Shown here piece by piece: positions 326-23,750 of a stretch of 64,000 bases of DNA. Origin of the DNA: Candidatus Bathyarchaeia archaeon (lineage in GTDB: Archaea > Thermoproteota > Bathyarchaeia > Bathyarchaeales > Bathycorpusculaceae); the NCBI GenBank assembly GCA_038882955.1, contig JAVZNC010000001.1:160001-224000 (forward strand), written 5' to 3'. A program made the position numbers and the translations under genes. The notes beneath the pieces are model-generated. The model saw only the letters and a program-made list of their open reading frames with translations, searched no databases and was not told where the DNA came from. Each line of letters begins with the position of its first letter. Position 1 is the first letter of the stretch.

Positions 326-1069
326 CTACTTCACCTCCAACGCCTTATAAAGGGGCGTTGTCTTCACAAAACGTTCTATCGTTATCATGTTCTTCCTACG
401 CATGTTCACAATCTGCTTAAGAACATCTGCAGGCTTAATTCCAAGCGCTTTAGCCAAATCTTTAACCGAAAGCGGCTTTGTCTTGGTCAGCAAGTGGATT
501 TTGTGGCGTAGGAAATCTTCCTTAACGATTTCGTCCATCAAAAAGTCGAATTCCTCTTGCGAGATTTTTTCTCCATAAACGTTTATGCTTTCCGTAAGCT
601 CTTTTTCCCTTCCAAGCAAAACTCTAAGCCTAAAGTCAGAAGCCGCGTTTTTAGCAGCCAAAATGTTTAGCATAAGTTCTGATTCTGGAGACGCTTTTAT
701 TGGAGATTCTCCAAGCCCAGTTATAACGGTGTTAAACTCTTTCAAGTGTTGGATGAAGCTTTCTCCTTCTAGCGGTGTGTACCATTCAAGCTTTACGCGT
801 TCCGGCTCCAAACCAGCAAGTGCAACAAGCTTCTTTAGAAGTTTAACGGCTCTTTCCGCATGAAGATTTCCTTCAATATAGTGGCAGTCTGGCGGTTTAC
901 AACCAACCATTAAAACGCCGTCAGCGCCATTAGCAAGCACGTCAAGAACAATGGCTGGGTCGAGCCTTCCAATGCACATTACACGGGCGACGTTAACGTT
1001 TTTTGGAATTTCCATTTCTTCTAGGCAGAAAGCCCAATTACACATGAAACAAACAATTTTTGCGCTCAT
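326..1069 (-). CDS. mvhD: MvhD-like [2Fe-2S] protein with C-terminal winged-HTH-like extension
   Basis: CNW...VMCIGR...GADGV..GCKPPDCHY motifs; tail KPLSVKDLAKALGIKPADVLKQIVNMRRKNMI is HTH-like. Confidence 0.8.
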   Translation of the reverse strand: MSAKIVCFMCNWAFCLEEMEIPKNVNVARVMCIGRLDPAIVLDVLANGADGVLMVGCKPPDCHYIEGNLHAERAVKLLKKLVALAGLEPERVKLEWYTPLEGESFIQHLKEFNTVITGLGESPIKASPESELMLNILAAKNAASDFRLRVLLGREKELTESINVYGEKISQEEFDFLMDEIVKEDFLRHKIHLLTKTKPLSVKDLAKALGIKPADVLKQIVNMRRKNMITIERFVKTTPLYKALEVK

Positions 1070-2896: not shown

Positions 2897-3487
2897 TTAT
2901 TCGCGCAGTCTACCTTCAAGCTTGCTTACCCACTTGTTGTATTCGCGGGCGCTCAACAACTTCTTAAGTTCCTGCTCTAAAGTTAACGAGTTGTTCGGCT
3001 TAATCTCCACAATCCAGCCTTCGCCGTATGGGTCTTCGTTAACGAGGTTTGGCTCGTTCTTCAGCTTCTCGTTTACTTTGACTATTTTGCCGCTTACTGG
3101 CGCGTACAAGTCGAACATGAACATCCATGTTTCCGCGACGCCGAATGGCTCCATGTGGCTTATTTCTTTTCCAACTGGTTCGGTCATTATGTTTGCTATG
3201 CCCTTCAAATGCCTTTGGGCATAGTCTGAAACGCCGACGCGGATGTTCCCTTCAGGTGTTACTTGTGCCCATGTGTGTTTTGGCGTGTAGAGGAGAAGTT
3301 CAGGTGTTAGGAGCAATTCCTTGCGTTTTTCTGCAGGTATGCCTTCTGCGCGCATTAGATCTTCGAGGCGTAGGCGGATGGCTTCTGAGACGAATTCTGA
3401 TATGCTTCTGTAGCGCCCTGTTTTGATTGCTTCTTCAATCTGTTTTATTAGTTCTTGTCTTATGCTTACGGTTTTCCATTCAGACAT
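2897..3487 (-). CDS. Ribbon-helix-helix domain fused to GcvH-like domain lacking the lipoyl lysine
   Basis: N-term KTVSIRQELIKQIEEAIKTGRYRSISEFVSEAIR is RHH/CopG-like. C-term VGVSDYAQ, DLYAPVSG, VNEDPYGEGW are GcvH motifs. ETWMF replaces ESVKA. Confidence 0.85.
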   Translation of the reverse strand: MSEWKTVSIRQELIKQIEEAIKTGRYRSISEFVSEAIRLRLEDLMRAEGIPAEKRKELLLTPELLLYTPKHTWAQVTPEGNIRVGVSDYAQRHLKGIANIMTEPVGKEISHMEPFGVAETWMFMFDLYAPVSGKIVKVNEKLKNEPNLVNEDPYGEGWIVEIKPNNSLTLEQELKKLLSAREYNKWVSKLEGRLRE

Positions 3488-3565
3488 TTTCCATCAACCT
3501 CCTTTACATCTGAAGCATATATAACATAAACCAAAGATATATACTTGATGCATATATTTTACGCA

Positions 3566-3582
3566 ATAGTAAATACCATATA
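3566..3582 (+). repeat. 17-bp direct repeat copy 1 (ATAGTAAATACCATATA)
   Basis: Identical to 3905-3921; imperfect palindrome. Confidence 0.8.
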
Positions 3583-3591
3583 TAAAATCGC

Positions 3592-3804
3592 TTAATGCTT
3601 CAACTCTCTCCCAAACCCCAGCAAGTTCCAAACGCGCTCATGAAAATAATAAACAACAGTCTTCAAAACAAGCTCTGACATTCCAACAACCCCGCCTAAA
3701 CTCCAATCGCCCTTACTAAATATTACGACCAACAAGATTGTTGTTAAAGTTGCAACAATTCGCCAAGAAATCGCCTTCACCAAACTTCTAATTGGTTTCT
3801 CCAA
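3592..3804 (-). CDS. DUF2061-like small membrane protein
   Basis: RSLVKAISWR...YYFHERVW signature. Confidence 0.8.
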   Translation of the reverse strand: MEKPIRSLVKAISWRIVATLTTILLVVIFSKGDWSLGGVVGMSELVLKTVVYYFHERVWNLLGFGRELKH

Positions 3805-3904: not shown

Positions 3905-3921
3905 ATAGTAAATACCATATA
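3905..3921 (+). repeat. 17-bp direct repeat copy 2
   Basis: Identical to 3566-3582; ends 4 nt before the GTG at 3926. Confidence 0.8.
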
Positions 3922-3925
3922 GACG

Positions 3926-5008
3926 GTGAAGCTTTTGGAAAGTAGAAAAGTGCAAAAAGTTGGCTACTCAACGCTGACTGTTTCACTTCCAAGCGAATGG
4001 ACAAAACAAAACAACATAAACCCTGGAGACCTAGTTTTCCTAATGCCAGAAAGAGACGGCACACTAAAGATTATGCCAAGCCACTTCGCCCTAAAAGAGG
4101 AAGCAGAAGAATATATCATTAACGCCGATGCCTGCGACGAGAAGGGCATGCTCGAGAGGATAATCGTCGGAAGCTACATGCTTGGAAGGGACGTTTTAAG
4201 GGTTGTATCCACAACAAGAATAAGCAAGGAACATGTTGACGAGATTAGGCGGATAGTTCCAAAACTAATTGGTCTCGGAATACTTGAAGAAACACCAAAA
4301 AACATACTACTCCAATGCTCAGTAGACCCGTCAAAATTCAAACTTGACATGCTTGTTAGACGCTTGTCGCTAATCGCATCAACAATACTTTTAGAGGCGA
4401 TGCAGGCGTTCCAAGAAAATAACGAAGATTTAGCTATAGAAGCCATCAGCCGCGAGGATGAGGCTGACACCATTTATTATCTTGCTGTTCGCTTGCTTCT
4501 TTCTGCGCAAGTTAAACCCGAAATTGCTGAGCAGATAGGCGCGACGGATGTGCTCTTTATACCAGCTACGAGGCTGATACTTCAATATTTAGAGTTGATT
4601 GCGGACTATTCAGAAGATATAGCCAAAAAAATCGTTGAGTTAAAGGTTTATCGCAACCGGATTCCATCAGACGTTGTGCAGAGAATTTTCCACATGGGCG
4701 AGTTAGCCCAAACCATATTCCAGAAAGCCCTAGACTGCATTTTCACAAGAGACCTTCGCGTGGCTAATGGCGTATTAGAAATGAAGGAAGTTCTCGAAAG
4801 GGAAGCTGAAAGACTGATGCGTGAAGCCCCAGAAATTCCGTATTTAAGGGCTTACATTTCATGCCTAACCAAAATTGCGGATAAGGGAGCGACAATTGCT
4901 GACATAGCCATAAACAGAGCATTGGAACAGCCCAAAAAAGAGGTTGAAGACATTGTCCGCGTGGTAAAGCATGTGCGGTCTATCCCATTAACTGCAAAGA
5001 ACGCTTGA
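3926..5008 (+). CDS. phoU: Archaeal AbrB-PhoU family regulator
   Basis: RKVQKVGYSTLTVSLPSEW AbrB domain; PhoU helices EDEAD, LELIADYSEDIA. Confidence 0.85.
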   Translation: MKLLESRKVQKVGYSTLTVSLPSEWTKQNNINPGDLVFLMPERDGTLKIMPSHFALKEEAEEYIINADACDEKGMLERIIVGSYMLGRDVLRVVSTTRISKEHVDEIRRIVPKLIGLGILEETPKNILLQCSVDPSKFKLDMLVRRLSLIASTILLEAMQAFQENNEDLAIEAISREDEADTIYYLAVRLLLSAQVKPEIAEQIGATDVLFIPATRLILQYLELIADYSEDIAKKIVELKVYRNRIPSDVVQRIFHMGELAQTIFQKALDCIFTRDLRVANGVLEMKEVLEREAERLMREAPEIPYLRAYISCLTKIADKGATIADIAINRALEQPKKEVEDIVRVVKHVRSIPLTAKNA

Positions 5009-5100: not shown

Positions 5101-5571
5101 ATGAGCAGTTTTGAGGAAGCCCTCCGAAACATAGATGTTTTCTGCAAGGTTCTGGTAAAGAAGCTTATTGAAAACGAAGCGGAAGAAATAAGCGACGTTG
5201 TTGTGGAGCCCATGGAGAAACTCATTTATAAAAAATACGTAATCAGCGAGCAAATAGAGCCAAGTCCTGTTAAGCATTTAATTCCATTACCACAGCTTGA
5301 AGAGCCCTTGATAGACGTGTTTGAGGACGAGAATTATGTAAGAATCCTTATACAGTGCAAATGCAAAGACCAAAAAATAACTGTTCACACGGACGTGGAT
5401 GGCATAGAAATATGCAACAAAGTCTGCTACAAGAAGGATGATGGAAATGAGGTTTGCGTTGACGAGTGCCGAAAGGTAACTCTTCCAGTTGATCACTTGA
5501 AAATTGAAAACATGGTTACGAAATGCAACAACAATGAGGCGCTTGAAATAGAGATTCCAAAAGAAAACTGA
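5101..5571 (+). CDS. Cys-rich Hsp20/alpha-crystallin-like protein
   Basis: EPLIDVFEDENYVRI...VTLP...NNEALEIEIPK resembles the sHSP core; 8 Cys. Confidence 0.55.
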   Translation: MSSFEEALRNIDVFCKVLVKKLIENEAEEISDVVVEPMEKLIYKKYVISEQIEPSPVKHLIPLPQLEEPLIDVFEDENYVRILIQCKCKDQKITVHTDVDGIEICNKVCYKKDDGNEVCVDECRKVTLPVDHLKIENMVTKCNNNEALEIEIPKEN

Positions 5572-5576
5572 CCCAT

Positions 5577-5777
5577 TTACGATTCGCTTGCCTCTCGACG
5601 TTTTATCCTAATTTTGCACCTCTCTTCATCGCTACATTTTATGCAGGTGTAAATAACGTCGAATTCGCTTTTACTTGGGTCAGATGGATTCACGAAAAAG
5701 GCGAAGCACTCCTCACCGCGCTTTATTGGTGCTCCACAACAGAAGCACTTGTGCTCTTTTAGGGCGGTCACCTTCAT
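5577..5777 (-). CDS. Small zinc-finger protein
   Basis: HKCFCCG...YTCIKC; SD-like GGAGTGG upstream. Confidence 0.6.
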   Translation of the reverse strand: MKVTALKEHKCFCCGAPIKRGEECFAFFVNPSDPSKSEFDVIYTCIKCSDEERCKIRIKRREASES

Positions 5778-5874: not shown

Positions 5875-6750
5875 CTAGCCTATTTTGCTTAGTACTGGGT
5901 CCAATTTTACCTTGTGGAAATCGAGTGCAAGCTCTTTTGGGTCTACTCCTAGGCTTACGCTCAAAAGTTCAGCGTAATGAATTACTGGTATGTTGTATTC
6001 TTCCTTGTATGTGGTTTTTATTAGCATTTGCCCAAGGTCCAGTGTTAGGAAGCAGAATGGACAGAGCGTTGATATGCAGTCTGCGCCAGCCTTTGAAGCG
6101 TTTACTATTTTGTCTCTTGCTATGGCTAAAGCCACGTCGTCAGCGTAGCCCCGCAGTAAACCGCCACAACACTTCAACTTATTCCTATACCAAATGCTTT
6201 TGGCGCCCAACACTTCAATCAAATCGTCAAAGATTTTCGGTCGTTCTGGATCATCAAACCTCAAGAGCGCGCTTGGTCTAAGCAGGTGGCAACCAGAAAA
6301 GGCTGCTACTTTAAGCTTGCTCAGCGGTTTTGCAACGCTTTTCTTTAGGTTGTTCAAACCGACATCGTTCATCAAAACTTGAAGGTAATGCCGAACTTCC
6401 CTGTTTCCCTTAAACTCTTTCCCAACAGATGCGAGAATCTTGTTAACCCTTTCCCTAAGCTCATTTTTTTCCTTCAGAAGGGTGTTAGCCATGGCAAGCG
6501 ATTCGAAGCACCCAGTGCACAACGTGACTATGTTTAGGTCCGCTTCTTCGGCTAGGCAGATGTTGTACGCGGCGATGGCAAGGCTTGTTTCCAAGTCTAT
6601 TGACTGCAGTGGCGGCGGGGCGCAGCACGTCATGTTCTCCAAGTCGATAAGTTCTATTCCAAGTTTTGTTAGGGCTTTACGCGCCGCCAACTCATAGTGT
6701 GGTTGCCGCGCGGGTATGGTGCATCCTAAAAACAGGGCGTAACTTGTCAT
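5875..6750 (-). CDS. hdrB: Heterodisulfide reductase subunit B
   Basis: FLGC, CCAP, CTGC, SGCH, CCGG, CPFC: two CCG-type domains. Confidence 0.92.
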   Translation of the reverse strand: MTSYALFLGCTIPARQPHYELAARKALTKLGIELIDLENMTCCAPPPLQSIDLETSLAIAAYNICLAEEADLNIVTLCTGCFESLAMANTLLKEKNELRERVNKILASVGKEFKGNREVRHYLQVLMNDVGLNNLKKSVAKPLSKLKVAAFSGCHLLRPSALLRFDDPERPKIFDDLIEVLGAKSIWYRNKLKCCGGLLRGYADDVALAIARDKIVNASKAGADCISTLCPFCFLTLDLGQMLIKTTYKEEYNIPVIHYAELLSVSLGVDPKELALDFHKVKLDPVLSKIG

Positions 6751-7265
6751 TGCGCTTCACTCTTCTTAAACTGGATTTTGTCGAATCCCGTTGCCGAGAG
6801 AATACGCCTAACAGCTTCGACATTTGCTGGCTTGAGTTGCGGCAAACCGTATTCGGCGCGCTTTTTCTCGAGAAACTTTGATATTGGGACTATGCGTCCT
6901 TCGTTCATTAGTCCAGCTGCAAATTCTGCGTAAATGTTTGGCACGTTTCCCTCGCGGATGGCAATGTTCCTCAAGGCGTAGATTACGTCGGCTATCTCGA
7001 CTTTCTGTGGACAACGTTCTTGACAGTTGTAGCACGAGGAACAAAGCCAGATGGCGCCGCCAGATAATACATCATCTCTTAATCCAAGCAGCGCAAGCCT
7101 AATAATTTCTCTCGGATTATATTTATCAGTAATTTTTGCCACTGGGCAGCTTGCAGCGCATGTTCCACACTGGTAGCATAGCGTTATTGTTTCTCCGCCG
7201 AGCCTGCTGGTTATTTCCTTGGCGAATCCCTTTGTCGACACTTTCTTTTGTGCTTCCTCAGCCAT
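6747..7265 (-). CDS. hdrC: Heterodisulfide reductase subunit C
   Basis: CYQCGTCAASCP, WLCSSCYNCQERCP; overlaps hdrB start. Confidence 0.92.
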   Translation of the reverse strand: MAEEAQKKVSTKGFAKEITSRLGGETITLCYQCGTCAASCPVAKITDKYNPREIIRLALLGLRDDVLSGGAIWLCSSCYNCQERCPQKVEIADVIYALRNIAIREGNVPNIYAEFAAGLMNEGRIVPISKFLEKKRAEYGLPQLKPANVEAVRRILSATGFDKIQFKKSEAQ

Positions 7266-7288
7266 GGGATTACCGTCCTTTTCTTGGT

Positions 7289-9709
7289 TTAGGCTAGTTG
7301 GAGTGCGCCAAGCCTCTCCACTTTTTCAGTCATAGCCTTTGCGGCTTCGGCGAACTTGTCGCCTTCTATGTAAACCATGTTGAACATTTCGAGACGTTCT
7401 GGTTCAATGCCATACTCTCTTAGCAAAACCTTTGCAAGCTCCACCTTCTTCTGTGCCTTCTGGCTTCCAACCTCGTAGTGGCAACCGTCTGGCTTACATC
7501 CGACAACCATGACTCCTTGAGCGCCAGCCTTGAAAGCTTCGAGTATGTGCTGTACTTGCAGTACGCCAGTGCATGGCACACGCAGCACGCGAACGTTTGC
7601 TGGATAATCCAACATAGCCATTCCAGAAGAGTCAACAGCGGCGTGACCACACTCCGAACAGCAGAAAGCCAAAACAAGCGGTTTTGATGCTCCATTAACG
7701 GACAGCAGCGCTTTCATCTGGGCTGAAATTTGGCTTGGCTTCAAGTGGCGAAGCTCAATTGCTCCGACGGGGCATGTGCCAACGCAGACGCCGCAGCCCT
7801 CGCATAAGAGGTCATCCACATGAGCAACCATGTGTCCGTCAGCCTTTTCCGTTAGTGTTATCGCCCCGTATGGGCATATGACCGGGCAGAATTCGCAGTC
7901 TCCGCAATAATCCTCGTTTACGTAGGCTGTTTTTTGGTCTTTGACGATTTTGCCGTTCAATAGAAACTTGGCAGCCTTAACAGCGGCCGAATGAGCATGA
8001 AGCGAAGTTGTAGGCGCATCTTTGGGAAATATTGCTCCACCGCAAATGAATATACCTCGCTTCTTTGTTTCTGTAGGTCTAAGTTTGGCATTGTATTCCT
8101 TAAAGAAGCCGTCCTTGTCCAGTTCTAAGCCGAGCAAATCTGCAAGCTGCTTTGCGTCTTCAACTGGCACCATTGCGGGCGATAAGACGACAAGGTCTGC
8201 TTCTAGTTCCAAGAACCTTCTTAAAAGTTCATCTTCAACATCGACGATTAGCAGGTTTGCTTCTGGGTCGTGCAAGATTTCTGTTGGTCTCCCCTTCACA
8301 AATTTTATTCCCATCTCACGTGCGCGTTCATAATAGTATTCGTGTTCCCTTCCAGTGGTTCTTATGTCAATGTAGCATATTGTTACGTCAGCATCTGGAA
8401 AAGCCGACTTAATCAGTGTGGCATGCTTCAGCGATATCATGCAGCATATGCTTGAACAGTACGGGTTCCAGCGTCTATCTCTAGAACCAACGCATTGAAT
8501 GAAAACTATCCTTTTTGCTGGTTTCTTGTCTGATGGCCGTATTATCATGCCCTTTGTTGGACCGAAAGCATCAATCATCCTTGCAAGTTCAAGCTGCGTT
8601 ATCACGTCTGGATACTCGCCGTAATGATACTCCTTTATCACGCTTGGGTCGTACTCCCTAAAACCAGTGGCAACAATTATGCTGCCCACATTAAGCGTAA
8701 CCTTCTTGCTCTTCTGGTTCAGCTCAATCGCCTTTGTCGGACAAGCTTCAACACACTTGCCGCACTCAGCGAATTTGCATGCATCAGCGTCTATGACGTA
8801 CACTGGCGGATAAACAAGCGGCGTGTTAATGTAAATCGCCTTCCTATTCTTCAGCCTCGCGTTATATTCATCTGGAACTTCAACTGGACAAACAGAAGCA
8901 CACAAATCGCATGCAACACACTTTTCCTCATTAACGTACCTAGGCTTTCTTTCAACTGTCACCTTGTAGTTTCCAGGCGCGCCATCGACTTTCACAACTC
9001 TAGAGTTTGTCAGCACGTTTAGGTTTGGAATTTCTGAGAAGCCAGAACGGTAAACGCATTTCCGCGAAGTATGCGTTATTGTCTTCACATCTGAAGCTGG
9101 CGACTGAATGCATATTGCACAGTCATCCGTCGGGAAAAACCGCCCAGCCTTCGCAGCTAACCCGCCGAGAAACGGCTCCTTCTCGACGAGGTAAACCTCA
9201 AAGCCCATGTCCGCTAGGTCTTCTGCAGCCTGCATTCCCGCAAGTCCGCCGCCTATAACGAGAACAGATTTTACGGCTGGAAACTCCAGTTTCTCAATCG
9301 GCTCTGCAAGTTTTACGCGCTCTATCGCAGCCAAAAGCATTGCCTTTGCCTTTTCCGTGGCTTCTTTAGGCGCGTCACGGTGTGGCCATGCGCAGTTATC
9401 CTTTATGTCTATGACTTCAACGAAGTTGGGGTTAAGTCCAACAGCTTCCAGAGATTCTGCGATGTTTATTTCACCGATTTTTGGTATGCTTTCCGCAACG
9501 ACTACACGGTCTATTTTGCCGCTTTTCACGGCTTCAACTACCGTTTTTAATCCTTGACCTCGCCAGAATTCGCTTCCGACAGCCACAAGAGAAACTTGTG
9601 GAACAATTTTCAGATGGTTCGCTATTTCCTCGAAGTTTAGAATTGCGGATAGCTGTTTTCCGCAGTCGGATAGGAATACTCCAATTTTTGCCTCTTCCAT
9701 TTCCGTCAC
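7289..9709 (-). CDS. hdrA: HdrA-MvhD fusion
   Basis: GGGLAG, FPTDDC, CVGSRD, CSSICCM, ferredoxin motifs, and an intact C-terminal MvhD (CCSEC, VPCTG, GCKPDGCHY). Confidence 0.9.
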   Translation of the reverse strand: MTEMEEAKIGVFLSDCGKQLSAILNFEEIANHLKIVPQVSLVAVGSEFWRGQGLKTVVEAVKSGKIDRVVVAESIPKIGEINIAESLEAVGLNPNFVEVIDIKDNCAWPHRDAPKEATEKAKAMLLAAIERVKLAEPIEKLEFPAVKSVLVIGGGLAGMQAAEDLADMGFEVYLVEKEPFLGGLAAKAGRFFPTDDCAICIQSPASDVKTITHTSRKCVYRSGFSEIPNLNVLTNSRVVKVDGAPGNYKVTVERKPRYVNEEKCVACDLCASVCPVEVPDEYNARLKNRKAIYINTPLVYPPVYVIDADACKFAECGKCVEACPTKAIELNQKSKKVTLNVGSIIVATGFREYDPSVIKEYHYGEYPDVITQLELARMIDAFGPTKGMIIRPSDKKPAKRIVFIQCVGSRDRRWNPYCSSICCMISLKHATLIKSAFPDADVTICYIDIRTTGREHEYYYERAREMGIKFVKGRPTEILHDPEANLLIVDVEDELLRRFLELEADLVVLSPAMVPVEDAKQLADLLGLELDKDGFFKEYNAKLRPTETKKRGIFICGGAIFPKDAPTTSLHAHSAAVKAAKFLLNGKIVKDQKTAYVNEDYCGDCEFCPVICPYGAITLTEKADGHMVAHVDDLLCEGCGVCVGTCPVGAIELRHLKPSQISAQMKALLSVNGASKPLVLAFCCSECGHAAVDSSGMAMLDYPANVRVLRVPCTGVLQVQHILEAFKAGAQGVMVVGCKPDGCHYEVGSQKAQKKVELAKVLLREYGIEPERLEMFNMVYIEGDKFAEAAKAMTEKVERLGALQLA

Positions 9710-11163
9710 CTTTCAATTTTCTTTATTAACTGCCTCTCGGAATTGTAAATTTCAACTTGCAACGGCATTTGCCCAACTGCAAAGTGTGTGGCACACGCGA
9801 AACACGGGTCATACGCCCTAAAAGCCATCTCAACCATATTCAAAATGCCATCGTTAACCCTGCCATTTTTTATCAGCGCCTTCGCGGCGTCTTTTATTGA
9901 TATGCATATGCTCGGCGCATTATGCGTCGTAGCCACGATGAGGTTGACTTTTTTGGCTAATGCCTTCTCGTCAAGTATGTAATGGTGTATAAGCGTTCCA
10001 CGTGCAGCTTCAACTATGCCAACGCCCTCGCCTGGTTTTTCTGGCTTATTCCGAATATCCTTGCTTGTTATTTCTGGGTCTGTTACTAGTTCTAGTGCGC
10101 GTTCAGCCGCATACAAAAGTTCTATTAGCCTAGCCCAGTGATACGCCAAAGTATTGTGGACTGGTTTTCCGCCAAGCGTCTTATACATTCTTTCATATTC
10201 AGCCTGCGCTAGGGCTGTTGCCATCCCGTCTGCAGCGTTAAGCCTTCCAAGCGGTCCAACACGGTATAGTCCACTTTGGGGTCCGCCGACCAAGCCTTTC
10301 CATCCAACCTTCTTTAGGTATGGCAGCTTCACGTATGTCCATGGTTCCACATGCTCTTCAATCACGTCCAAGTATTCTTTTGGCTTGAATTTGACGAACT
10401 CTTTTCCGTTTGGGTCTACAACGCGTACGTCGCCATCATAGAAGTTCACGTGGTTGTTTTTGTCAACCAAGCCCATGTAATAGGTTGGGAGCGTGTATGC
10501 TTCGCTTTTTATTAGGTTGACGTAGTCCGTGTTTTTCAACACTATGTCGTCGAAGAGTTTTAGGCTGAATTTCGCGAATTCAAGGCAGCTTCTCGCCATC
10601 TTCTCGATTTCGCGTCGCTCTTCTTCTGAAAGTGGTTTTGAAACGCCCCCGGGTATGCACGCGCTAACTGGATGTGTCGCCTTTCCGCCCAAAATCTCCG
10701 TTATCTTTTGCCCGTAAGCCCTATGTTTTATGACTCCCTTGCCTATTTCGAGTCCAGCTTTTTCAATGACTCCTATAACGTTTCTTTTTTCTGGTGGAGC
10801 ATCGGGTCCAACGACGAAGTCTGGACCGCCAAGGTAGTAGAAGTGTAATGTGTGGTCGTAGAGGTAATAGCCGCAATACATTAGTTCGCGAAGTTTTTTG
10901 GCGGTTTCTGTTGGTTCAACGTTAAACGCTGCGTCAAGCGCCTTTGCGCCTGCCATGTGATGTGCAACTGGGCAGACGCCGCAAATTCTCGTTGTTATTA
11001 TTGGTAGGTCTTCGGCTCTTCTTCCTTCGCAGAATCTTTCGAAGCCTCGCAGTTCTGGGACTTGGAAGTAGGCTTCTTCCACATTTCCAGCTTCGTTTAG
11101 GAATATTGTTATTTTTCCGTGTCCCTCAAGCCTCGTTATTGGGTTTATGACTATTTCCTTCAT
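9706..11163 (-). CDS. mvhA: [NiFe] hydrogenase group 3c large subunit
   Basis: TRLEGHG, RICGVC (L1), DPCFACATH (L2) plus cleavable C-terminal tail. Confidence 0.93.
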   Translation of the reverse strand: MKEIVINPITRLEGHGKITIFLNEAGNVEEAYFQVPELRGFERFCEGRRAEDLPIITTRICGVCPVAHHMAGAKALDAAFNVEPTETAKKLRELMYCGYYLYDHTLHFYYLGGPDFVVGPDAPPEKRNVIGVIEKAGLEIGKGVIKHRAYGQKITEILGGKATHPVSACIPGGVSKPLSEEERREIEKMARSCLEFAKFSLKLFDDIVLKNTDYVNLIKSEAYTLPTYYMGLVDKNNHVNFYDGDVRVVDPNGKEFVKFKPKEYLDVIEEHVEPWTYVKLPYLKKVGWKGLVGGPQSGLYRVGPLGRLNAADGMATALAQAEYERMYKTLGGKPVHNTLAYHWARLIELLYAAERALELVTDPEITSKDIRNKPEKPGEGVGIVEAARGTLIHHYILDEKALAKKVNLIVATTHNAPSICISIKDAAKALIKNGRVNDGILNMVEMAFRAYDPCFACATHFAVGQMPLQVEIYNSERQLIKKIER

Positions 11164-12099
11164 CTAGCGCACCTTCCTTTTTAGGATGGAGTTTGCAAGA
11201 GAATACTTGTAGAAGGTTCCAACTGGGTCAACGATTTGTTCGATAACGCTTGGGTCCGCGGCTATCGACGCGAAGGCGCTTATCATGGCTGCGCCTTGGT
11301 CTGTTACTCTCGGCGTTGGTCCACCGCATCCCGTGCATGGCACATTAGCCTTTAAGCATTGGGCGCCGCATCCGCCTCTTGTGGCTGGTCCCATGCAGAC
11401 GACGCCTTGGTCTAGGAAGCATGTTTTGAAGTCGTCTTCTATCTCGTAGATTCTCTTTACTTGTGTGATTTTTCTGTCCTTTTTCTCTCTTGGGCATTCG
11501 TCGCATATCGACTTGTTCAGTAGGAAACTCGCGCCCTTTGGCGGCAGTTTTCCGCTTACTATTGCCTCTAAAGCTTCTATTATGTGTGGAACAGGTGGCG
11601 GACAGCCCGAAATGAAATAGTCAACATCAACCGTTTGGGCTAGGGTTTTAACAGTGTCGTAAAACTCTGGAAGTTCAAGCTCGCCTTCCTTAACTTTTAG
11701 GCGTGGTTGGGGAGTAACACCCTGCGGGTTTTTCGTTGAAGGCGTTTCGAAGTAGGCTCTCTCAAAGATTTTCTGCCTATCCCAGAGGTTCCCAAGTCCT
11801 ATGACGCAGCCATCGCATGCGCATGAACCGAAAGCCACAAGAACCTTTGACTTTTGCCTTAACAGTTTAGCCATATATTCCTGTTCGCTGTTACGAATTG
11901 CGCCGTTGAAGAAGCACACGTCTATGCTCTTGTCTGGCATTGCCTCAACGTCTTTGTATTTTATGTCCATTGCTACTGGCCAAAAGACGATGTCGGCTTT
12001 GGCTATGACGTCTAGGATTTTCTCGTTTATATCCAGAACGGCGATTTCGCAGCCGCCACAACTCGCAGCCCAATAAAACGCAAACTTTAGCTTCTCCAT
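11164..12099 (-). CDS. mvhG: [NiFe] hydrogenase group 3c small subunit
   Basis: ASCGGCE, GSCAC, GCPP, CDEC, CFLDQGVVCMGPATRGGCGAQC. Confidence 0.93.
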   Translation of the reverse strand: MEKLKFAFYWAASCGGCEIAVLDINEKILDVIAKADIVFWPVAMDIKYKDVEAMPDKSIDVCFFNGAIRNSEQEYMAKLLRQKSKVLVAFGSCACDGCVIGLGNLWDRQKIFERAYFETPSTKNPQGVTPQPRLKVKEGELELPEFYDTVKTLAQTVDVDYFISGCPPPVPHIIEALEAIVSGKLPPKGASFLLNKSICDECPREKKDRKITQVKRIYEIEDDFKTCFLDQGVVCMGPATRGGCGAQCLKANVPCTGCGGPTPRVTDQGAAMISAFASIAADPSVIEQIVDPVGTFYKYSLANSILKRKVR

Positions 12100-17451: not shown

Positions 17452-18690
17452 TTACTTTGCCTCCGCAACCTCAAGTCTCAATGGCGGCATAGCTGCAATT
17501 TTTTTGAAGAACTCCTCAAATTTCTGGTTGAAATCGCCTACACAGCGAGGGGAAACCGTGAAAAGCTCGAAACGCTCGAGCAAACCATTCTTTTTAAGAT
17601 AATCTTTAAGGACTTCCATGTTTCTTTCAGCTGCTTCCCTTCCCTCTTGAAGTTTGCAGTCTTCAGCTGAGCAGACAACAGCCATGACGCCGTCGAAGCC
17701 GCCGTGTAGGGCTTCAACAACATGAACGGGGTCAAGAGCCTTGAAACATGGGATTTCCATGGCTACGGCTTTCTTCTTGAAAAGTAGGCATTCTGGGTCG
17801 TCTAGGCAAGAGAATTCTGACCATTGACAGCAAAAGACAAGTATTGACGGAAAGCTGGCTTCGCCCTTCATTTTCCTTGCGGCTTCTCCATAAAGTCTAA
17901 CAAGTTTACTGATATTTTCAAACTCGAAACCCTTAACCTGTATTGCCAAGTGTGGACAAACCAAGGCGCACGCTCCACAGCCCATGCACGCTTCTTGGAT
18001 TATCCGTGGCGTTGCGAACTCTTCGGCTTCTATTGCGCCGTAGGGGCATATGAAAACGCACTTGTCGCAACCAACGCACTTTTCTGTGTCGTAAACAGCT
18101 TTATGCGAATACTTTATCACTTGTAGGGCGTCTTTGCTGAAGCCCAACTGCTCCAGAACGGCTTTTCCAAGCATAAGCCTCCTAGTGTTAATTTTTGTTC
18201 CCCTTTTGAAGCGACAAAACTCATCCTCGCATTGAATTGAAATCACGTTTTTGATGCCGGAATTCAAAGCCTTGAAAACAAATTCTGTTGGCACACGACC
18301 AGAACACGGAATCCGCAAAGGAATATAATCCTTCACGTTCAAGCCTTGAACCTTCAAGATTTCTTCAATCTCGCAAGTTGCGGGAGAATTGCCACGACAC
18401 ATCAAAACAAGCGTTTCGCTCTTGTTTCTCTCGCGCATACACTCCAAATATTCCATCAAATTTTCGTAGTTGTAGTAGACAATTTCTATGGCTAATGATG
18501 GGCAAGCGCTGTAACATATCCCGCAGACTTGGCACTTTTGAATGTCAATCTCGAAATTGCCGCTTTCTGGATCCCGCTTTATAGCCTCGTAGGGACAAAC
18601 AGCATAGCAAACCGCACATTTGCTGCAATAATCCTGATTTATGCGCACTGCGGCGGCGCATGCAGCTTCATTCATGCACCATTTCTCCAC
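17452..18690 (-). CDS. Tandem ferredoxin-MvhD-ferredoxin-MvhD protein
   Basis: Two 2[4Fe-4S] units, each followed by an MvhD-like unit (IPCSGR/QCEDEFC; IPCFK/VCSAEDC). Confidence 0.75.
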   Translation of the reverse strand: MEKWCMNEAACAAAVRINQDYCSKCAVCYAVCPYEAIKRDPESGNFEIDIQKCQVCGICYSACPSLAIEIVYYNYENLMEYLECMRERNKSETLVLMCRGNSPATCEIEEILKVQGLNVKDYIPLRIPCSGRVPTEFVFKALNSGIKNVISIQCEDEFCRFKRGTKINTRRLMLGKAVLEQLGFSKDALQVIKYSHKAVYDTEKCVGCDKCVFICPYGAIEAEEFATPRIIQEACMGCGACALVCPHLAIQVKGFEFENISKLVRLYGEAARKMKGEASFPSILVFCCQWSEFSCLDDPECLLFKKKAVAMEIPCFKALDPVHVVEALHGGFDGVMAVVCSAEDCKLQEGREAAERNMEVLKDYLKKNGLLERFELFTVSPRCVGDFNQKFEEFFKKIAAMPPLRLEVAEAK

Positions 18691-18779
18691 TGTCTAGCGT
18701 AAACTTGCCTCACGCCTAACGCGAGGGTTAGAAGATTTTTGATGACAGTTCCAATAATATAATGGTTTTGGAGCATAAC

Positions 18780-19715
18780 CTAGGGTTTGTAATAGTAAGG
18801 TCTGCGGATATAACCATAAGCCTCAAGTGCAGCGGTTATGCCCTGCCCAACAGCCGTTCCAACCTGCTTCACCGGATGGTTTGTGACATCTCCAGCCGCG
18901 TAAACCCCTGTAATGTTTGTTCTCTGGCGGATGTCAATTGTTATGTAGCCTTCCTCGTTTACGGCTACGCCTGCTTCTTTGGCTAGTTGGCTGTTTGGGT
19001 CTTCGCCAACTTGTATGAATACGCCATCTACAGGCAACTCGCTGGTTTCGTTAGTTTTGTTGTTGAAAATCACAGCCTTGTTCACGAGTTTTTCGCCTAT
19101 AATCTCCTTAACCTCAGTGTTCCACAAAATTTCCACGTTGGCTTTTTCCTTCAATGCCTTAACGAGCGCTTCCTCAGCCCTAAAAGCGTCTCGCCTATGA
19201 GAAACCTTGACCTCGCCAGCAATTTCAGCCATATACAAAGCTGTTACAACAGCGGAATTGCCGCCACCAACGACAAGGACACGCTTGCCTTTAAATAATG
19301 GTCCATCGCAGATGCCGCAGTAGCTTACGCCTCTTCCACGAAACTCTTTTTCGCCTGGAACACCTAATTCGCGATAATGCGAACCAGACGCAATTATGAC
19401 CGCTTTAGCTTCATAGGTGGCTTTGTTTGTCTTTATCAGCTTGACTTCGCCTTTTAAGTTCATGCTTAAAACTTTTTCAAATTCGCGTATTGTAACGCCA
19501 ACTTTTCTGCAGTGCGCCGCCATTTTCTGGGCTAGCTCAATGCCACTTATGCTTTTGAATCCTGGATAATTTTCAATTAGCGGGGCGTCAGCCGTTGTGC
19601 CCCCAGCCATTTTCTCCTCTAAAACCAGCGTTTTTAGTCCACTTCTTGCGCCGTAGATTCCAGCCGCTAAACCAGCGGCGCCTCCGCCTATAATAATTAG
19701 GTCCCAATTTTCCAT
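18780..19715 (-). CDS. trxB: Thioredoxin reductase
   Basis: GGGAAG, IENYPG, GVSYCGICDG, GGGNSA, HRRD, AGDV; ATG at 19715. Confidence 0.92.
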   Translation of the reverse strand: MENWDLIIIGGGAAGLAAGIYGARSGLKTLVLEEKMAGGTTADAPLIENYPGFKSISGIELAQKMAAHCRKVGVTIREFEKVLSMNLKGEVKLIKTNKATYEAKAVIIASGSHYRELGVPGEKEFRGRGVSYCGICDGPLFKGKRVLVVGGGNSAVVTALYMAEIAGEVKVSHRRDAFRAEEALVKALKEKANVEILWNTEVKEIIGEKLVNKAVIFNNKTNETSELPVDGVFIQVGEDPNSQLAKEAGVAVNEEGYITIDIRQRTNITGVYAAGDVTNHPVKQVGTAVGQGITAALEAYGYIRRPYYYKP

Positions 19716-19772
19716 GGCGACATCCTCTTCTTTAGTATTCTGTTGCCTAGTTCTTATCAAGTTTGCATATGT

Positions 19773-19919
19773 TTAATCATCTTCGTCAATTTCGAAGTCA
19801 AGTTCGCTTATTTCCATTTCGTAGCATTCTTGGCATAAGCCATCAAAAAGTTCGTATTCCTCCTGTGAGATTTGCTTTCCGCATAGTAGGCATCTGTAAA
19901 CTTCTGCTTCATCGCCCAT
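19773..19919 (-). CDS. 48-aa acidic CxxC zinc-finger microprotein (not in ORF track)
   Basis: Manual translation MGDEAEVYRCLLCGKQISQEEYELFDGLCQECYEMEISELDFEIDEDD; abuts the stop of the upstream paralog. Confidence 0.75.
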   Translation of the reverse strand: MGDEAEVYRCLLCGKQISQEEYELFDGLCQECYEMEISELDFEIDEDD

Positions 19920-20111
19920 TCACATGACATCTCCAAACATGTCTTCGGATTCTTCTGTCATCTGATCGTCCCAGCACTCCCAACACATACCATCAAAATT
20001 CTCGTACTCGTCCTCGTCAATTTCGCAACCGCAAACCTCACAGTAAAACTTCTTTTCGCTTTCCTCTCCAGAAGCCTTACGCTTCTTTTTCTGTTTCTTC
20101 AAGCAGATCAC
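19920..20111 (-). CDS. Acidic CxxC zinc-finger microprotein with basic N-terminus
   Basis: YCEVCGCEIDEDEYENFDGMCWECW; start uncertain (GTG 20111 or TTG 20102). Confidence 0.7.
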   Translation of the reverse strand: MICLKKQKKKRKASGEESEKKFYCEVCGCEIDEDEYENFDGMCWECWDDQMTEESEDMFGDVM

Positions 20112-20173
20112 TAAATAATTTAACTGTCGCGTTGATGTAAAAACATTTTGAAGCACAAATCAATAAAAGTTCG

Positions 20174-21283
20174 CTAGATTGCTTGAGCAACGAGCTCAGC
20201 AATGTCTAAAACTTGGATTTTACCCTCATTACCAGTTGTTTTAACAGCATCCTCAATCGTTAATAGACAGAATGGGCAAGCAACAGCCAAAATTTCAGCG
20301 CCAGCGGCAACAGCGTCTTTAACGCGCATCTCAGCCAGTCTTGGTCCTGGAATATCAACCCACATTCTTCCGCCTCCTCCTTCGCAGCATAGGCTTCTGG
20401 CTCTTGAACGGTCAAACTCCAGAAGCGTTACGCCTGGAATGCTCTCAATTATTTTGCGCGGTTCTTCGTATATGCTGTTTTGTTTGCCCAAGAAGCATGG
20501 ATCATGATAAATTACTTTCTTTTTTACTTCTTTTGTAAACGTCAGTTTTTTCTCATCTACGAGTTTGGCTAGCAGTTGCGTGTGGTGGAGTGGCTCAAAG
20601 CTTGTTTGGTTGTAGCGGTTTTTGAAGGCGTGGAAGCCGTGTGGACAGTTTGTTACGGCTTGTTTGATGGCGTATTTGTTGAAGATTTTCATGTTCTCCT
20701 CAACTAGGAACTCGAACAGTCCTTTCTCGCCCATGCCGTAAACTTCGCTTCCGCAGCAGTTTTCCTCTTCGCCTAAAACGCCGAAGTTCACTCCAGCCTT
20801 TTGAAGGCATAAAACGAGGCTTTTTGCTACGCTTTGGACGCGGGGGTCGTAAGCCGATGTGCAGCCAACATAGTAGAGGATTTCGGCGCCTTGTGAAATA
20901 TGTTTGACGTTTAAGCCTTGGCTCCATTCAGTGCGTTTGCTTCGGATTCTAGCCCACGGGTTCCCATTCTTAAATATGCTTTCAAGCGCATCGCGTATCG
21001 TAGGCGCTATCTGCCCTTCTTCAACAGCCATACTTCTAATGTCAATTAGAAACTCGTAAGGGTTCAAGTCTTTTGGGCAGCGGACACCGCATGTGGAGCA
21101 TGTTGTGCAGCTCCATAACTCGTTTTGCGGGTGGATTGCTAACCGTCCAAGTGCGGAGACCTCGCGCATGTAACGTCTAATGTTTAGGTTGGCTTTTTTC
21201 GCTACTGGGCAGCTGCCCGTGCACATTCCGCATTGTATGCATTCGAGAAGCTTGTGTTTTTGGATTAGTTCTTGAACGTTCAT
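20174..21283 (-). CDS. Soluble HdrD/GlpC-like Fe-S oxidoreductase (2[4Fe-4S] + 2 CCG)
   Basis: CIQCGMCTGSCP, CTTCSTCGVRCP, NCCG, HDPCFLG, CCEGGGG, ACPFC; no TM segment. Confidence 0.85.
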   Translation of the reverse strand: MNVQELIQKHKLLECIQCGMCTGSCPVAKKANLNIRRYMREVSALGRLAIHPQNELWSCTTCSTCGVRCPKDLNPYEFLIDIRSMAVEEGQIAPTIRDALESIFKNGNPWARIRSKRTEWSQGLNVKHISQGAEILYYVGCTSAYDPRVQSVAKSLVLCLQKAGVNFGVLGEEENCCGSEVYGMGEKGLFEFLVEENMKIFNKYAIKQAVTNCPHGFHAFKNRYNQTSFEPLHHTQLLAKLVDEKKLTFTKEVKKKVIYHDPCFLGKQNSIYEEPRKIIESIPGVTLLEFDRSRARSLCCEGGGGRMWVDIPGPRLAEMRVKDAVAAGAEILAVACPFCLLTIEDAVKTTGNEGKIQVLDIAELVAQAI

Positions 21284-21383
21284 TTTAGATGTCACTTTGA
21301 CTGATTTCTGGGAGTAAGATTTTTAATAAGTGTTTTCCCTTCTATGAGTCAAAACATACATTGGAGAACGGAGATTACTCGTC

Positions 21384-23750
21384 ATGGAAAAGAAAACGCC
21401 GAGAATCGGAATTTTTGTCTGCGAATGCGGCGGAAACATAGGCGACGTGGTGGATGTTAAAGCTGTTGTTGACGCTGTTAAAAATTGGGAAGGCGTCGTC
21501 GTAGCCAAACAACACAAGTACCTTTGCTCAAAACCAGCACAAGAGATGATAATTGAAGCCGTAAAAAAGAACAACCTTGACCGAGTTATCGTCGCAAGTT
21601 GTACGCCGCGCATGCACTTACCAACATTTCAAAGTGTTTTGGAAAGGGCTGGACTGAACCCCCACATGCTTGAGTTTGTAAATATCCGCGAACAAAGCTC
21701 ATGGGTTCATGGTCCACACGCCTCGGCGGAAGCCACAAAGAAAGCCATAAGCCTAATCCGAGGCGGTTATGAAAGAAGCTTTGAGCTTGAACCTTTAGAA
21801 ACTATAAGTGAGAAAGGCTCAAGGGAAATACTAATAGTCGGCGGCGGCATCGCCGGAATAACAGCCGCTCTTGAGCTTGGATATTTAGGTTATAAGGTGC
21901 ACCTTGTAGAGCGAAAGCCAAGCATAGGCGGCAACATGGCAAAACTCACAAAAGTTTTTCCAACATTGGACTGCGCCCAATGCATTTTGACACCTAGGAT
22001 GGCGGAGGTGGGAAGAAACCCAAACGTGAACTTGCTGACGTATGCTGAAGTGCAAGAGGTAAGTGGAAGACCAGGCAATTACAAGGTTAAGGTCTTCATG
22101 AAGCCTAGAGGCGTGGACGTTGAAAAGTGCAGAAGCTGTGGCGTATGCGCTAAAGTTTGTCCAATAACTGTTCCAGACGAGTTTAATGAAAGCTTAATGC
22201 AGCGAAAAGCCGCATACATCGAGTTTCCACAGGCGGTTCCATCAGCCTACGTTATAGATTTTAACGCTTGCAATAAATGCCGAAAATGCGAGCAGCTTTG
22301 CCCAGCAAAAGCCATAAACATAGATGACGCTGGCAAGGTTGTTGAATTGAACGTTGGCGCGATAATTCTGGCTACGGGATACCAGCTTTACGACGCGCGA
22401 AAACTGGAGATTTATGGTTATGGCACATACAAAGACGTAATAACAATGATGGAGCTGGAGAGGCTAACGTCAGCAACTGGACCAACAGGCGGTTTTGTTA
22501 AAAGGGCTGACGGAAACGATGTCAGGAAAATAGCAATTGTCCTCTGCGCTGGCTCACGCGACAAAAATTACATCCCATACTGTAGCCGCATCTGCTGCAT
22601 GTACTCGCTAAAGCAAGCGTTTGTGCTAAAGAAGATGCTTGGAATAGACGTAACCATCTACTACATCGACATTAGGGCAACTGGAAAGGGCTATGAAGAC
22701 TTGTACTGGCGCGACCAAGAGGCAGGCGTAGTCTTCATCAAGGGCAAAGTTGCTGAAATCTACAAGAACAACGCAAATGGCAAGCTTGTGGTTCTGGCTG
22801 AAGACACTTTGACTGGCGAAATGCGAGAAGACGAGTATGACATGGTTGCTTTGGCTACACCCATGGTTCCGCCAGCAGGACTTAAGGAACTTGCCGAAAA
22901 AATGAAGGTGGCAATTGGCGAAGACGGCTTCATAACGGAGAAGCATCCGAAACTTGACCCCGTAGACTCGCTTGTGACTGGAATTTTCGCTTGCGGATGT
23001 ACCCTAAGCCCGAAAGACGTTAGGGATACGGTTTCAGACGGTTTGGGCGCAGCGGCAAGAGCGGCGCTTTTCCTCAAAAGCGAATATGTCACCACAAGCC
23101 CAGAAAAAGCTTATGTCATCGCGGACTTGTGCAATGGCTGTCAAGCATGTGTGCCAATTTGTCCCGTAAACGCTATAACAATGGTTGAAGGAAAAGCGAA
23201 AATAGACCCGTTCCAATGCGTCGGATGCGGGGCATGCATACCAGCGTGCCCACAAGAAGCTATAGACTTTAAGAATGCTACGACAAAGCAGATTCTCGCG
23301 ACGTTGAGGGGCGTTCTGGCGGAAAAACAAGCTGGAGAAGTAAGGATAGTAGCTTTTGTTGACAAGAATGTTGGTTACACTGGAATAGACTTTTTGGGAT
23401 TAGACAGAACAAACTATCCAGAAAATGTGCGTATAGTTGCCGTGCCATCAACGGCAATCTTGGGATTAAAACATATTCTCTACGCTTTTGCTTATGGCGC
23501 GGACGGTATACTAGTGATTGAAGGTTCAGAGGAGATAGACGAGAAGTTCACGAAGAAACGCATGATTGACATGGGAAGAGACCTAGCAAAATACGGCGTA
23601 GAATCGATGCGCTTGCGCTATAGTTATGTTCCACTGCCAGTTTACAAGAAGGCAGCAGAACTTTTCACAATGTTCACGGACAGAATAAAGAAGTTTGGAC
23701 CCCTCGCAGAGGAGAAAAGAACCAACATAAAGCAGCAACTAAAAATTTAG
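21384..23750 (+). CDS. hdrA: HdrA with Cys-less MvhD-like C-terminal domain
   Basis: VCECGG, ASCTPRMH, FPTLDCAQC, CAGSRD, CSRICCM; C-term YPENVRI...GADGILV has no Cys. Confidence 0.9.
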   Translation: MEKKTPRIGIFVCECGGNIGDVVDVKAVVDAVKNWEGVVVAKQHKYLCSKPAQEMIIEAVKKNNLDRVIVASCTPRMHLPTFQSVLERAGLNPHMLEFVNIREQSSWVHGPHASAEATKKAISLIRGGYERSFELEPLETISEKGSREILIVGGGIAGITAALELGYLGYKVHLVERKPSIGGNMAKLTKVFPTLDCAQCILTPRMAEVGRNPNVNLLTYAEVQEVSGRPGNYKVKVFMKPRGVDVEKCRSCGVCAKVCPITVPDEFNESLMQRKAAYIEFPQAVPSAYVIDFNACNKCRKCEQLCPAKAINIDDAGKVVELNVGAIILATGYQLYDARKLEIYGYGTYKDVITMMELERLTSATGPTGGFVKRADGNDVRKIAIVLCAGSRDKNYIPYCSRICCMYSLKQAFVLKKMLGIDVTIYYIDIRATGKGYEDLYWRDQEAGVVFIKGKVAEIYKNNANGKLVVLAEDTLTGEMREDEYDMVALATPMVPPAGLKELAEKMKVAIGEDGFITEKHPKLDPVDSLVTGIFACGCTLSPKDVRDTVSDGLGAAARAALFLKSEYVTTSPEKAYVIADLCNGCQACVPICPVNAITMVEGKAKIDPFQCVGCGACIPACPQEAIDFKNATTKQILATLRGVLAEKQAGEVRIVAFVDKNVGYTGIDFLGLDRTNYPENVRIVAVPSTAILGLKHILYAFAYGADGILVIEGSEEIDEKFTKKRMIDMGRDLAKYGVESMRLRYSYVPLPVYKKAAELFTMFTDRIKKFGPLAEEKRTNIKQQLKI

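Follow-up and report, generated by a model that had tools for sequence, protein, structure and literature searches.

To our knowledge, how the Hdr/Mvh electron-bifurcating machinery of uncultured Bathyarchaeia is regulated has not been described. The locus presented here raises the question of what a protein named GcvH in the databases, but carrying an additional N-terminal domain and no lipoyl lysine, might be doing at the front of such an operon. The gene lies near one end of a 64,000-nucleotide stretch of contig JAVZNC010000001.1 (positions 160,001 to 224,000; ‘the window’ in what follows). Since it is placed just ahead of the Hdr/Mvh genes, we believe that it probably encodes a local regulator and not a GcvH; and on balance we favour a ribbon-helix-helix (RHH) transcription regulator, the lysine-less H domain of which would serve as an effector and/or higher-order assembly module. 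The gene and its product divide as follows (window coordinates throughout):

2897-3487, (-) strand: RHH-H fusion gene; ATG start, 196 codons and a TAA stop in a single uninterrupted frame
3498-3505, (-) strand: Shine-Dalgarno sequence of the fusion gene, AAAGGAGG, ahead of the ATG
3347-3475, (-) strand: ribbon-helix-helix domain, residues 5-47 (Pfam RHH_1, family profile against the PDB, model helices)
3296-3346, (-) strand: linker, residues 48-64, with a helix at 52-60 in the model; the least constrained part (dN/dS 0.21)
2924-3295, (-) strand: H-protein (GCV_H) fold, residues 65-188 (Pfam, Foldseek)
3113-3133, (-) strand: hairpin ETWMFMF, residues 119-125, with the Met122 codon (3122-3124) in place of that for the lipoyl lysine

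Within the full-length protein, residues 6-42 match Pfam RHH_1 at 20.6 bits against a cut-off of 20.5, a margin of 0.1 bit; scanned alone, the first 55 amino acids score 24.9 bits, and 12 of 17 N-termini taken from relatives and paralogues match the same model (best 5.3e-7). Searched against the PDB, a profile built from the 17 N-termini gives its best matches to the RHH domain of H. pylori NikR (E 0.012) and to a CopG-family protein (0.019). The RHH part comprises a putative strand, WKTVSIR, and two helices, spanning residues 9-22 and 29-47 in the AF2 model. Across the family S30-E31-F32 and E35-A36 are invariant, with T6, S8 and R10 alternating along the strand; a pattern that agrees with the DNA contacts of RHH proteins. 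Stand-alone relatives of the first 45 residues, 54-144 aa in length, are present elsewhere in the phylum.

The remainder of the chain has the fold of an H protein: residues 65-188 match GCV_H at 1e-31, over profile positions 1-120 of 122, and the AF2 model (mean pLDDT 85.7) contains two RHH helices, the linker helix and the H-protein fold. The architecture put forward in the first-pass annotation, an N-terminal RHH domain joined to a complete GcvH fold, is thus borne out by both Pfam matches and by the model (TM 0.94, detailed below). In this monomer model residues 1-8 are coil, which would be unsurprising if the strand takes shape only on dimerisation. Prediction of a two-copy complex (alignment A2), run without controls, scored 0.30 and 0.19, the mark being 0.42, and weighs neither for nor against dimerisation.

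A phmmer search of the PDB aligns the E-S-T-K of M. tuberculosis GcvH with E-T-W-M of the fusion, making Met122 the equivalent of the lipoyl lysine, as had been proposed from the hairpin ETWMFMF. A word-indexed search returned 1352 proteins, the best 120 of which (196-202 aa, 86-99% identical; source names pointing to Bathyarchaeia/Bathyarchaeota) were treated as close homologues: all of these 120 have methionine at the lipoyl position, and 115 keep ETWMFMF in full. More widely, 150 representatives at 50% identity comprise 16 with the RHH part and 134 without. Lysine occupies the lipoyl position in 106 of the 134, and in none of the 12 fused representatives that have a residue there (M, L, W, F, N, C or A); the other four are three fragments and one deletion. 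A tabulation of this kind had been suggested at first pass, and with the RHH part kept and the lysine absent it speaks against a one-off fusion or decay; by these counts, the missing lipoyl lysine is a trait of the family. One distant paralogue among the 19 locus-encoded copies (L029) has a hairpin lysine one residue out of register, within VEAASKRLF.

Substitution is not confined to the hairpin lysine. Positions conserved in canonical H proteins and altered in the fused group include E72 (the Glu of the HEW motif, part of the cleft in which the lipoyl arm lies once loaded), T87, D88, L102, P103, S120, A123 and V124, with H71, W73, G85, G106, E119, P130, G133, N139 and W158 being retained in the fusion. 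Lysine-less H domains were also seen in two other settings: P0132 (1391 aa) has three of them alongside FAD_binding_4, FAD-oxidase_C, Fer4_8 and two CCG domains, and P0255 (264 aa) joins a TIR_2 domain to a GCV_H with leucine at the lipoyl position, a non-metabolic context.

Across ten orthologues, dN/dS is 0.08 for the RHH, 0.21 for the linker and 0.045 for the H domain, values to be read with the caveat that dS is saturated and that 33 (RHH) and 10 (H domain) of the 45 pairs were usable. Conservation across homologues and the low dN/dS together indicate a maintained family; a pseudogene or decaying gcvH was considered and is ruled out on the same grounds. Among 401 genomes sampled from the phylum, long frames that include the RHH part were confined to the family and order to which the window belongs; we take the putative regulator to be specific to one order of Bathyarchaeia.

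Some relatives encode tandem RHH-H paralogue pairs (L022, 6001-7166; L025, 2191-3366; L026, 6001-7272), and P0121 is a single 417-aa chain with two RHH-H units; an arrangement that suggests hetero-oligomers, or may be an artefact of gene calling or read-through. In genome G029 (L027, 6001-6584), two overlapping frames encode the RHH and H parts separately, with no GltD-like orthologue nearby, the result of either gene splitting, a frameshift or faulty assembly.

The first-pass annotation had remarked on the absence of glycine cleavage and lipoate ligase genes. This stands for the window, within which there is no gcvP, gcvT or lipoate-ligase-family gene, but not for the genome, which encodes a full canonical set together with lipoate-ligase-family genes. 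A canonical gcvH is found on contig C5 (136 aa, ESVK, TIGR00527 138.1), and a whole-genome search places gcvT on C2 and C19 and gcvP on C4 and C30; the gcvP, gcvT and lipoate-ligase-family genes are together distributed over C2, C19, C4, C30 and C8, plus C1:145519-145884. Two BPL_LplA_LipB (lipoate-ligase-family) genes are present elsewhere in the genome. The nearest (C1:145294-145956) lies 14 kb outside the window and 17 kb from the fusion, and was rejected as a linked partner on account of that distance and of the AOR- and fumarate-reductase-like genes in between.

Turning briefly to the canonical genes themselves, gcvH (G000:C5; L001, 1465-3236) is followed by a CoA-disulfide-reductase/NADH-oxidase-like flavoprotein that falls below all NCBIfam cut-offs and is not a classical dihydrolipoyl dehydrogenase. 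The gcvT gene and two gcvP subunit genes each occur twice, on contigs C2/C19 and C4/C30; given an estimated contamination of 6%, this may represent a second strain instead of true duplication.

The fusion gene is bordered by the following genes:

1-324, (-) strand: 5' portion of an HdrA-like gene, in an operon that runs on beyond the window
326-1069, (-) strand: MvhD-like protein with a C-terminal extension (Pfam)
1066-2823, (-) strand: GltD-like NAD(P)-binding flavoprotein with a C-terminal 2x[4Fe-4S] region; start probably ATG 2787
3592-3804, (-) strand: DUF2061 small membrane protein, upstream of the fusion; missing at that place in several relatives
3926-5008, (+) strand: AbrB/MazE-type DNA-binding domain plus PhoU domains; a divergent, conserved neighbour

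Past the HdrA-like gene, and beyond the window, the operon continues on the same strand through MvhD, HdrC, HdrB, MvhG, MvhA and HycI. In 14 of 16 relatives' loci, the fusion sits directly upstream of the GltD-like orthologue and its MvhD/HdrA set and on the same strand, down to 43-60% identity; the exceptions are the two-frame arrangement of L027 and the distant paralogue L029, carried on a 3.3-kb contig. Fusion and GltD-like orthologue (at least 66% identity) occur together in 17 of 41 related genomes, with G029 having only the (two-frame) fusion, G001 no more than a fragment of the orthologue, where a contig ends, and the others neither; as these genomes are kin and not independent, we read the co-occurrence as linkage and attach no statistic to it. 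The adjacent Hdr operon, of which the fusion had been proposed as controller, is therefore real and tightly linked to it (14 of 16 loci, 17 genomes), but is a GltD-like/Mvh/Hdr operon with its own promoter-like block and not an sHdr/LbpA system. The AbrB-PhoU gene is an equally conserved neighbour of the operon/fusion region.

Several other features of the neighbourhood may be recorded here. The C-terminal extension of the MvhD-like protein (326-1069, (-) strand), some 125 aa in length, has weak winged-helix-type matches (PF0610-like_N, 7.2e-4; IF2_N, 1.1e-3). Between AbrB-PhoU and a second hdrB are two conserved open reading frames with no Pfam family (5101-5571, (+) strand; 5577-5777, (-) strand), both syntenic in most relatives, the 66-aa product having two Cys pairs as in a zinc ribbon. 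The regulator region lies between two paralogous HdrA-HdrC-HdrB-MvhG-MvhA clusters (5875-12099, (-) strand; L040 10498-17808, (-) strand), with more Hdr/MvhD-type genes at 17452-23750.

The intergenic regions on either side of the fusion gene contain a set of candidate cis-elements:

3906-3919, (-) strand: second copy of box A, between DUF2061 and the divergent AbrB-PhoU gene, beside the AbrB-PhoU start
3567-3580, (-) strand: box A, TATGGTATTTACTA, some 90 nt ahead of the fusion start codon; candidate operator
3498-3560, (-) strand: promoter-like block, conserved in the alignment, with two TATA-like boxes, AGTATATAT and TTATATAT, and the Shine-Dalgarno sequence AAAGGAGG
2862-2896, (-) strand: T/pyrimidine-rich tract 3' of the fusion stop codon, presumably terminator-like for archaea
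2845-2860, no strand: exact 16-nt palindrome, GCGTTAAGTTTAACGC, upstream of the TATA-like box of the GltD-like gene; partly conserved in relatives
2829-2837, (-) strand: TATA-like box of the downstream operon, CTAATATAT; consensus in relatives TTAGATGRCTTAATATAT

Alignment of 13 orthologous upstream regions reveals box A, two TATA-like boxes and a Shine-Dalgarno sequence in common. Box A reads TAGTA-TT-TACTA in relatives, where both placements are kept, and the 14-mer has exactly two copies in the 1.54 Mb genome; the palindrome has one copy genome-wide at 0 mismatches, plus two one-mismatch copies on C2 and C16. Genome-wide scans gave no further convincing copies of either element. The operator candidates named at first pass (2845-2860 and 3566-3582) are hence real features, the one a unique exact palindrome and the other covering a 14-mer with two genomic copies. 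A degenerate 10-mer scan of the loci produced many background matches and provides no site count, whilst a scan for bacterial sigma-70 promoters and terminators found no excess over shuffles, its models being bacterial and inapplicable to archaea. Because the two elements differ, and because two other proteins of DNA-binding type are nearby (AbrB-PhoU and perhaps the MvhD extension), neither candidate site can be assigned to the fusion. The pyrimidine tract, followed by the conserved palindrome and TATA-like block, suggests that fusion and operon form separate transcription units. A look-up of sequencing runs for RNA found none listed, and just two runs, from one study, with a small word share (0.16).

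In the reading we favour, a DNA-reading beta-ribbon would be formed by a pair of N-terminal RHH domains; the H-protein fold, no longer able to carry lipoate, would then act as an effector and/or assembly module, like the C-terminal domain of NikR. The protein would most likely control its own promoter and that of the GltD-like/MvhD/HdrA/MvhD/HdrCB/MvhGA/HycI operon, which starts ~75-110 nt downstream. We infer dimerisation and DNA binding, as we do the bound site, the target, the sign of regulation and the signal. A more specific proposal, and one that we consider doubtful, has the Trp-Met hairpin mimicking a lipoyl arm: the H domain might dock as a pseudo-substrate onto an enzyme whose usual partner is a lipoyl-H protein, perhaps the operon's HdrB (CCG) or the GltD-like flavoprotein, with the repressor reading the occupancy or redox state of the complex encoded by the genes under its control. 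The lysine-less H domains of P0132, borne by an HdrD/GlcD-like enzyme, are a hint of contacts between H domains and Hdr. Were the mimicry true, lipoyl-H protein would also have a physiological role in non-methanogenic Bathyarchaeia as the thiol/disulfide partner of Hdr.

Alternatively, the H domain might sense nothing and simply tetramerise or stabilise an RHH regulator, the W-M-F-M-F hairpin being buried in a dimer-of-dimers interface; we regard this as possible, if rather unlikely. In nearly all fused subfamilies the exposed lipoyl hairpin has turned markedly hydrophobic or aromatic, as an interface would be, and the tandem pairs (L022, L025, L026) and two-unit P0121 chain suggest oligomers; yet the hairpin varies among subfamilies, in places with insertions (ETVARWPLVIH, ETPGWWYLR), and the dN/dS of 0.045 for the remaining H fold is seemingly beyond the needs of a plain oligomerisation module. 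Somewhat less probable again, to our minds, is that the protein binds no DNA and instead serves the GltD-like/Hdr/Mvh complex as an accessory subunit or in docking or assembly, its RHH-like part being there for dimerisation only. A subunit or chaperone role would account just as well for the tight co-occurrence of fusion and operon; and to this near-perfect co-occurrence and adjacency can be added the covalent attachment of lysine-less H domains to the HdrD/GlcD-like enzyme P0132 and, in the portion of the source consulted, the partnership of lipoate-binding H-like proteins with Hdr-like complexes in sulfur oxidisers (PMC6067878). Set against these are the terminator-like tract and promoter-like block that separate the fusion gene from the operon, conservation, within the RHH, of the S-E-F helix cap and of polar and basic residues on the strand, and an architecture resembling RHH-plus-module regulators such as NikR.

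That most database names are right, and the protein functions as the H protein of glycine cleavage or as a carrier of lipoyl groups, strikes us as highly improbable. The fusion passes the NCBIfam subfamily model NF002270 (123.2 against a cut-off of 117), and it is this looser model that leads to the name GcvH in source databases; but its TIGR00527 equivalog score of 103.7 is below the cut-off of 115.85, the attachment lysine is found in none of the best 120 homologues, a canonical gcvH is encoded in the same genome, and no gcvT, gcvP or lipoamide dehydrogenase gene adjoins it, the neighbours being Hdr/Mvh/GltD-like. Hundreds of database entries name the fusion GcvH, and inferences of glycine cleavage or of the reductive glycine pathway in these genomes are inflated as a result. 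Equally hard to credit is a CopG/ParD-type antitoxin from a toxin-antitoxin pair: ParD models do match weakly (NCBIfam TIGR02606 at 1.1e-5, below its cut-off; Pfam ParD_antitoxin in 7 of the 17 N-termini), but there is no toxin-like neighbour, synteny with a metabolic operon extends over 14 loci, and the C-terminal part is a 125-aa folded domain and not a toxin-binding tail.

No description of the RHH-H fusion was known at first pass, and none was found in full-text literature searches, covering main texts, or in term look-ups in PMC11237513 and 10.1101/2025.01.14.632903. As a putative RHH regulator, the fusion provides a concrete candidate for control of the Hdr/Mvh machinery, with two defined candidate operators. 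Cofactor-less reuse of the H-protein fold, on a DNA-binding domain here and in TIR and HdrD-like proteins elsewhere, also widens the roles supposed for this fold.

With regard to known systems, LbpA of the sHdr system is likewise an H-like protein encoded beside Hdr-type genes; in the portions of the sources consulted, it keeps its lysine and is lipoylated, with no DNA-binding domain mentioned (PMC6067878; 10.64898/2026.10.01.755906). The operon here is by contrast Mvh/Hdr/GltD-like, and its fusion is without a lipoylatable lysine. Dedicated sLpl ligase or LipS genes are not in the fusion cluster, the nearest BPL_LplA_LipB gene being 17 kb off behind unrelated genes, and no sulfur-oxidation genes were seen in the annotated stretch. 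The likeness to GcvH itself (PF01597, TIGR00527) is one of complete fold: Foldseek superposes the model on E. coli 3ab9 with a target-normalised TM of 0.94 and an rmsd of 1.0 Å over 128 columns at 37% identity. GcvH nonetheless keeps the lipoyl lysine and the HEW Glu, whereas the fusion has methionine, an extra N-terminal RHH and no linkage to gcvT/gcvP. The stand-alone repressors CopG, Arc and MetJ, and the ParD antitoxins, share the RHH motif but are single-domain proteins or have short tails, in place of the fusion's 125-aa H fold. NikR is similar to the fusion in sequence only weakly, over ~37 residues, and its C-terminal module is an ACT-like nickel-binding domain where that of the fusion is the barrel-sandwich fold of an H protein. 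Both are nevertheless small and one-chain, with an N-terminal RHH followed by a folded C-terminal module; by analogy, then, the putative regulator follows a known plan, that of an RHH plus C-terminal module as in NikR.
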